Shown here piece by piece: positions 58,581-59,132 of a stretch of 64,000 bases of DNA (positions are counted from its first letter, which is position 1; each line of letters starts with the position of its first letter). The translations under genes were made by a program, and so were the position numbers. This DNA is from Eledone cirrhosa (lineage: Eukaryota): contig OZ024741.1 of assembly GCA_964016885.1 (NCBI GenBank), positions 161,138,001 to 161,202,000 of the forward strand, given 5' to 3'. The notes under the pieces were generated by a model, which saw nothing but the letters and a program-made list of their open reading frames with translations, did no database searches and was not told the origin of the DNA.

Positions 58581-59132
58581 CAAGGTTTAGCAAATAATGA
58601 AAAAGTTTCAAAATAAATTTTAAAAATTGACTTTACCTACTATAGTTACCTTTACCGATCGGTTTCGAATCCCAAAAATAAACGGAGACCATACGGCCTT
58701 CGTTGCAAAGAAAGATTCATGCGTCCCTTAGCGCCTTGTGCGTGAAGGAACACATATCCTATTATTACTACTCTCCTCTATTGTTGAGAGACAAATTGGG
58801 TCGTTCCGACTGCTGCTAGTGATAGTTGCGGCCGGTTTGACCTACCTCCCTCTGCCTCTATCTTTACTTCGGCCCTTGAAAAAATTGATTCCACTTCATT
58901 CACTCTCATCTCAGGAACAGTTTTGGATAGCGCTAGTTCGTAATTTAAATTCAAGAATTTTATATTCTTCGAATGAAAAGAACCTTCTGACGAGAATCTT
59001 TCTTTGCAACGAAGGCCGTATGGTCTCCGTTTATTTTTGGGATTCGAAACCGATCGGTAAAGGTAACTATAGTAGGTAAAGTCAATTTTTTAAAATTTAT
59101 TTTGAAACTTTTTCATTATTTGCTAAACCTTG
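58581..59132 (+). mobile_element. 552-bp fold-back element with a terminal HHR inside the TA array
   Basis: 58581-58718 is the reverse complement of 58994-59132 apart from one homopolymer indel. Unique ~275-bp core. Confidence 0.88.
58982..59064 (+). ncRNA. Type I hammerhead ribozyme, intact
   Basis: acctt CTGACGA gaatctt[..]gggattc GAAAC cgatcg GTA aaggt: 5-bp helix I and palindromic ACCGATCGGT helix III. Confidence 0.88.

Follow-up and report, generated by a model that had tools for sequence, protein, structure and literature searches.

A probable truncated Penelope-like insertion with near-identical inverted arms and a hammerhead motif in a TA array of Eledone cirrhosa

The insert at 58581-59132 of the window, by which we mean the whole 64-kb stretch of DNA analyzed here, is a real structure of a known kind and is probably a truncated insertion of a canonical Penelope-like element (PLE). 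We put at about 0.68 the probability that it is a truncated Penelope-like insertion in which a direct copy lies head to head with an inverted copy of the element's 3′ end, the two cDNAs having been joined by microhomology at the ribozyme core. What resembles a terminal inverted repeat (TIR) most likely arose as a second, truncated reverse transcript of a PLE and is not a transposase TIR. The insert is a clean case of a Penelope stump, one that annotation relying on TIRs would probably label a DNA transposon. The head-to-head structure, the identical outer end of both copies and their passage through the predicted cleavage site can be read directly from the DNA.

Arms and hammerhead motif of the insert

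Alignment of the two ends showed that 58580-58718 is the reverse complement of 58994-59133 with identity at 139 of 140 aligned positions, the sole mismatch being a 1-nt indel within a T run. The initial annotation, made from the sequence alone, had described near-identical inverted arms of ~138 bp within a TA array, and this description is confirmed, the array spanning 56801-64000. The outermost A/T pair of the aligned arms is probably target DNA, which gives element limits of 58581-59132, an insert length of 552 bases, arms of 138 bases and a direct copy of 414 bases. The left arm (58581-58718, minus strand) is an inverted, 5′-truncated copy of the element's 3′ end. The direct copy (58719-59132, plus strand) is non-coding, is covered throughout by family reads and contigs with many 1-nt indels, and is a putative pseudo-LTR or 3′ end of a PLE; within it lies the right arm (58994-59132, plus strand), recognized from the arm alignment and from reads, the outer end of which we infer to be the start of reverse transcription. 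No second copy of the 58581-59132 sequence was found elsewhere in the 64-kb window. The arm identity, together with an identical contig from one of the sequencing runs described below (X1 record 1), would suggest that the insertion is young.

The terminal base of the left arm, C58718, is the complement of G58994, which is the first base of helix II and directly follows CTGACGA (58987-58993). The earlier statement that the arm stops where helix II begins and excludes CTGACGA is therefore correct in substance, but its exactness is uncertain by at least one base, because 44 raw-read molecules start at CATG 58718-58721 and C58718 may belong to the spacer side also. The start of X11 reads at 58719 is a CATG site and was used only as an indication of the status of C58718. 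Lacking both CUGACGA and the 5′ strand of helix I, the left arm alone is unable to form a ribozyme.

The motif itself is a minimal type I hammerhead at 58982-59064 (plus strand), recognized by pattern, folding and family variants. Helix I (58982-58986/59060-59064) has 5 bp and is followed by the core at 58987-58993; helix II (58994-59000/59039-59045) has 7 bp including two G-U pairs and carries a 38-nt insert with an inner hairpin; GAAA occupies 59046-59049; and helix III (59049-59058) is a perfect 10-nt palindrome. The cleavage triplet GUA at 59057-59059 is located where the initial annotation had placed it, with the cut predicted after 59059. Features matching the PLE minimal hammerhead are a helix I of 4-5 bp, a helix II of 7-8 bp, the G10.1-C11.1 pair and the palindromic helix III. 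An unpaired base between positions 9 and 10.1 is absent, G58994 coming directly after the core. A relaxed hammerhead pattern occurred in 0 of 2000 dinucleotide shuffles of 58719-59132, both strands being checked. An Rfam search of the element returned no matches up to E=10, and of the 241 window-wide Rfam matches the 150 listed were repeat-driven miRNA or snoRNA hits under their gathering scores. The exact helix III pattern had no matches in metagenome contigs and none in viral contigs. The previous description of a textbook hammerhead completed by the right arm thus holds in that the motif is present, but it is of the minimal type with no Rfam match, and the spacer and right arm form one continuous family sequence rather than a chance completion.

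In folding predictions, the hammerhead conformation of 58978-59068 costs 2.1 kcal/mol more than the free minimum, and the pair probabilities in this isolated 91-mer are 0.68-0.99 for helices I and II and 0.03 for helix III. The folding z-score of 58975-59075 is -0.83. Helix I is absent from the prediction when the 414-nt copy is folded whole, and the ribozyme helices have a probability of 0 when both arms are present; a transcript containing both arms would be predicted to lock the ribozyme. In free co-folding, a dimer was favored via loop II and not via helix III. Cleavage is predicted to be weak and to take place as a dimer or with the help of protein. As far as the available text of the two reports extends, metazoan PLE hammerheads are singly inactive as monomers (PMC4209133), a PLE hammerhead needs the protein, and the role of hammerheads in PLEs is described as unclear (PMC11167929). 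Given this inactivity or protein dependence of single PLE hammerheads, a silent 58975-59075 monomer would be no refutation of the ribozyme reading. The same reports, together with the predicted locking of a two-arm transcript, advise caution toward the earlier view of this insert as the best candidate for biochemical testing.

There is no ORF in the insert, and no reverse transcriptase (RT) or endonuclease of the insert's family was found. A 115-aa plus-strand frame had no Pfam match and no match to the window's other endonuclease end; its weak match (E 6.6e-4) to repeats of a subtilase-domain protein was taken as chance, and a coding remnant in this frame was rejected.

Flanks, neighboring elements and family copies

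The insert is flanked by TA-type microsatellite array on the left (56801-58580), representing the target, and on the right (59133-64000). The plus strand is biased toward G on both sides, with 86 G and 1 C on the left and 140 G and 4 C in 59133-61000. The left flank is therefore no inverted copy of the right, and the non-inverted flanks favor two priming events over one snap-back. The left flank ends with TA while the right one begins with TT, one base off TA, so that the flanks show no exact TA target-site duplication, in a comparison weakened by their low complexity. We also found that the right flank carries a tandem duplication of the array with a period of 3100 bp, in which 59133-62232 is repeated from 62233 to the window end, the repeats differing by 1 mismatch over 1724 aligned bases and by unit-length indels, and which starts within ~20 bases of the insert's right end. 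This 3.1-kb duplication may be biological or may be an assembly artefact. Its element-free duplicate reads TA at the insertion point, and the G-to-G spacing there equals that of the window with the insert removed. If the element-free duplicate represents the empty site, the equal spacing implies that there was no target duplication. There may thus have been either no target duplication or a TA duplication with one subsequent change.

We surveyed other elements in the window. The copy at 29503-33581 is PLE-like, with inverted arms of 1.17 kb and hammerhead motifs at 29610 (minus strand) and 33474 (plus strand), and it contains a 5′-truncated 513-aa RT/GIY-YIG-like ORF at 30600-32141. This ORF has no Pfam match; GIY-YIG and RT members are present in the atlas clusters nearest to it (score 0.97), and Mollusca is named among the few recorded members of some near clusters. 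Having hammerhead arms around an RT/GIY-YIG-like ORF, this copy serves as an in-window control that supports the PLE reading of 58581-59132. The insert itself resembles none of the other PLE-like copies found in the 64-kb window. Inverted arms of 0.33 kb with a hammerhead motif in each are found at 33653-35337, and the surrounding region (33591-35735) holds, among TA runs, two nested repeat families whose copies are direct, inverted or folded back; one of these families has motifs at 33889 (minus strand) and 35096 (plus strand). A fold-back at 35474-35735 has as its center a hairpin that is also present in a relative at 34470-34560, and a short fold-back lies at 34656-34797. Between TA runs, the region 11905-12105 contains a near-perfect 124-bp palindrome (11982-12105), with a hammerhead-like 3′ half in each arm and its center in loop II, as well as a one-sided extension of ~75 bp; a decayed relative at 53635-53790 (minus strand) seems to have kept the whole motif. 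Hammerhead-bearing inverted layouts are therefore common in the window, occurring in different families in or beside TA repeats with arms of ~60 to 1170 bp. A GC-rich broken element at 5628-10185 (minus strand) has RT-like and GIY-YIG-like motifs by eye and no Pfam match; a hammerhead core (5813) and then a TA run come after it, and its 3′ end recurs at 39703-39851. The window further contains an LTR retrotransposon (22947-28916) whose 509-bp LTRs share 99.8% identity and whose minus strand has an RT-RNaseH-integrase frame of 845 aa; a 780-bp inverted pair (44044-47701), non-LTR-RT-like and 84% alike, with an endonuclease-like frame between; and a 397-aa NHL-repeat frame (49699-50892, plus strand), no other of the 11 frames scanned being a clear candidate for a host gene.

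The reference 58719-59133 was compared with four of 13 listed public sequencing runs, X1, X2, X6 and X11, of which X1 and X2 may derive from the material behind the window's assembly. No RNA run was listed as containing the sequence, which has no bearing on expression. As the reference began at the junction, overhangs at that point may have escaped joint testing. Statements on substitutions refer to the 40 of 186 listed, and those on loose ends to the 14 of 131 listed; summed contig depth was excluded as a measure of copy number. The family is multi-copy, with 709 X2 contigs over four identity bands and 1792 X11 reads. Run X6 provided a single contig of depth 2, which is too little for a cross-species claim. 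An extension behind 59132 was present in 129 X11 reads (depth there ~242), 20 X2 contigs and 1 X1 contig (9 letters), and the first 13 letters of the X2 and X11 extension consensus lines are identical. An extension common to about half of the X11 reads at 59132, and at least 13 letters long, would fit the optional tail of 30-40 bp known from part of the copies of PLEs rather than a fixed TIR end. There was no step-up in depth into the arm at 58994, where depth went from 608 to 485 in X11 and from 61,887 to 45,810 in X2, and only 1 of the 1792 X11 reads and 0 of the 709 X2 contigs fitted two places. Among the matches listed for X1, X2, X6 and X11 against 58719-59133 there were no strand-switch joints, and hence no variable junction was seen either. 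Taken together, the evidence from copies leans against a fixed unit. The contig X1 record 1 (0 differences, depth 79) extends 19 nt past 58719 and breaks where the 59013 variant would map on the left arm, which hints at more than one molecule type with a common junction. The majority of X11 ends coincide with AATT or CATG sites and probably reflect library artefacts, and the X11 end pile-ups at 58794, 58797, 58886, 58956, 59087 and 59094, all at AATT sites, were rejected as element boundaries.

The variants within the hammerhead were also considered. Three substitutions were seen in it among the 40 of 186 listed, all of them pairing-compatible (58996 and 59013 to G-U, 59040 to U-A), and none of those listed fell in the core. 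Insertions affect the loop II insert as well as loop III, where they (82 and 20 of ~530 reads) disrupt the helix III palindrome. Separately, two X2 contigs end at 58765 and continue into TA repeat, and 58733-58760 is covered far more deeply than 58775-58788; the palindrome segment at the start of the spacer may exist separately from the remaining spacer. In X1, 30 of 62 changed places on 58719-59133 were A>G and 5 were T>C, compared with 13 and 21 of 87 in X2 and 23 and 37 of 165 in X11 (Fisher p 6e-5 and 6e-6, respectively). The A>G excess would fit A-to-I editing of a plus-strand transcript and is offered as a lead only, given that a few contigs could supply most of the sites and that the kind of run is unrecorded. 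Heavy editing of Penelope repeats in lizards is reported in the available text of PMC5625713.

The inverted junction and its possible origin

On its spacer side, the junction begins with an imperfect 37-nt palindrome (58719-58755) with an 11-bp stem on the minus (cDNA) strand, identified by hairpin scan and shuffles. As a 3′-terminal cDNA hairpin it ranks 1 of 351, and only 4 of 500 shuffles were as stable when folded as DNA and 0 of 500 when folded as RNA. The cDNA hairpin at 58994, on the other side, has -4.2 kcal/mol, which ranks it 35 of 351; there are 41 local minima, of which it is one, and stronger hairpin sites, for example 58967, were unused as an end point. Near the end of the long cDNA, GACG (58722-58725, minus strand) provides a candidate microhomology of 4 nt, with a 2-nt offset, to 58989-58992 in the core. 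In a match scan of 355 positions, the only site with a match of at least 4 was this one, at the junction, where it was picked up by 4 adjacent positions. The scan tolerated as many as three unpaired bases on each side, a limit chosen after seeing the junction. If C58718 is parental, the GACG match gains a paired terminal base and the arm end shifts by one.

These observations suggest that the arm end beside helix II likely reflects a sequence match at the core and not a ribozyme fold that stopped the enzyme, as an RT moving 3′ to 5′ would have copied and opened helix II before reaching 58994. Stalling of the RT before a helix would have left ends near 59046 or 59065 and was rejected on that ground; an end at the cleavage site was rejected because the arm continues beyond 59059. 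Five further inverted junctions were considered in the window, from four hammerhead-bearing families (other ones or the same); two were within the helix II domain and three outside it. The helix II coincidence is real, concerns one copy only and has a plainer explanation in sequence. The initial annotation had read the apparent TIR as an aborted cDNA with an end point set by ribozyme structure; a truncated reverse transcript is indeed most likely, but the modest rank of the 58994 hairpin and the GACG match make the second part less likely. We found no published description of an arm ending at helix II in the literature covered, chiefly the main text of freely accessible papers; published supplementary alignments of PLE hammerheads may include this family.

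How PLEs build inverted junctions is named as an open question in the available text of PMC8557442. We propose that PLE protein acting in trans would have cut both strands of the TA array, and that each cut end would have primed reverse transcription at one internal start site, as suggested by the common outer base and by the accessible part of PMC11167929. Synthesis of the long cDNA would have stopped at the 37-nt palindrome, and that of the short cDNA would have proceeded at least as far as the core. The two cDNA 3′ ends may then have annealed via GACG, extended by an A and perhaps a G and leaving two single-base bulges, before being trimmed and sealed. Given a retro origin, the template RNA would have been uncleaved, since both copies run through the cleavage site, and the arm end would adjoin helix II because annealing occurred at the core, which adjoins it.

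Alternatively, in a PLE insertion of this kind, structure may have set both junction ends, with nascent cDNAs released on completing hairpins (the 37-nt palindrome and helix II) and joined afterward, which would give the idea of the initial annotation a workable mechanism. The junction is bordered on either side by the 5′ base of a stem, with the top-ranked hairpin at 58719 and a local minimum at 58994, and the fold-backs 35474-35735 and 11982-12105 are centered on hairpin regions that also occur in non-folded relatives, the second within loop II of a half hammerhead and with a relative only ~77% alike. We nevertheless consider this unlikely: the hairpin at 58994 is one local minimum among 41, 58967 and other stronger sites were passed over, the two G-U pairs of helix II would be mismatched in DNA, the ribozyme is disregarded by three other junctions of the window, and a single copy permits no statistics. 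Snap-back of a single cDNA, with its 3′ end landing on the core via GACG and self-primed copying proceeding outward, draws on the same microhomology as the reading that we prefer and would account for the near-identical arms. Self-priming has been proposed for PLEs in the available text of PMC3846280, and short fold-backs are present in the window. This explanation nonetheless appears slightly less likely than hairpin release: the copying must halt precisely where the cDNA begins, the two flanks are not inverted copies of each other, and a cDNA end held in its own hairpin would prime from ~58756 instead.

Least probable of all, in our estimate, is a fixed 552-bp non-autonomous unit amplified whole, either as a MITE of a DDE transposase that carries a hammerhead or as a PLE derivative recopied whole. 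It would be consistent with the small size, the TIR-like ends and the lack of an ORF, with TA on the left and a right flank one base from TA, and with the TA-microsatellite MITEs reported from plants; a common junction is also hinted at by X1 record 1 and by the 44 molecules that begin at CATG. Against it, about half of the reads at the outer end continue into the common extension, depth does not double over the arm and a single X11 read fits two places, the G-to-G spacing without the insert matches the element-free duplicate (implying no duplication if that is the empty site), and the hammerhead is of the type tied to PLEs. A more far-reaching idea, which we regard as doubtful and place between snap-back and the fixed unit, is that PLE inversion junctions are programmed by the element RNA, with the core as landing site and cDNA hairpins (the 5′ palindrome and helix II) as release points, so that the same MITE-like unit would be made repeatedly and be transcribed on the ribozyme strand as a 138-bp, ribozyme-locking, A-to-I edited hairpin. 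If this were true, the hammerhead would be a structural insertion signal even without cutting. One copy cannot settle the matter, and a young multi-copy family with a sharp core junction could separate microhomology from hairpin release.

Comparison with known systems

The comparisons below refer to the available text of the papers cited. Like the TA-microsatellite MITEs (PMC8449440, PMC4486113), the insert is short, has TIR-like ends, lies in a TA array and belongs to a family of many copies; it differs from them in lacking a perfect TA duplication, in having ends that are not fixed among copies, in its internal ribozyme and in that no matching transposase was found. Animal non-LTR retrozymes (bioRxiv 10.64898/2026.07.22.740005) are likewise non-coding and PLE-related with a type I hammerhead, whereas the insert is inverted, with one direct copy in the window and no tandem hammerhead monomers. 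For Poseidon of Anolis in vitro (PMC11167929), an internal reverse-transcription start that defines the tail, extension of both target strands and uncleaved RNA as the main template have been described; in our case the mechanism is inferred from one genomic copy, and the target is a TA array.

The PLE minimal hammerheads (PMC4209133), for which opposite-strand pairs 100-700 bp apart have been reported, resemble the type I motif of the insert in their short helix I, 7-bp helix II, G10.1-C11.1 pair and small palindromic helix III. In contrast to them, the insert has no unpaired base before helix II, a 38-nt structured loop II insert and a second motif that is incomplete. PLE insertions with an inverted 5′-truncated copy, a one-sided tail and (TA)n targets have been described (PMC8557442), as have pLTR 5′ ends and inverted junctions with palindromes of 18 and 38 bp, and joins by microhomology (PMC3846280). 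Compared with a canonical EN+ PLE with an inverted pLTR, the insert has no ORF, this copy is tail-less at both ends, and its arm ends at the border of core and helix II. What it has in common with such elements (PMC8557442, PMC3846280) is the head-to-head inverted 5′-truncated copy, the palindrome at the junction, the AT-rich or (TA)n target and the hammerhead near the 3′ end; the extension seen in other copies may correspond to their optional tail.
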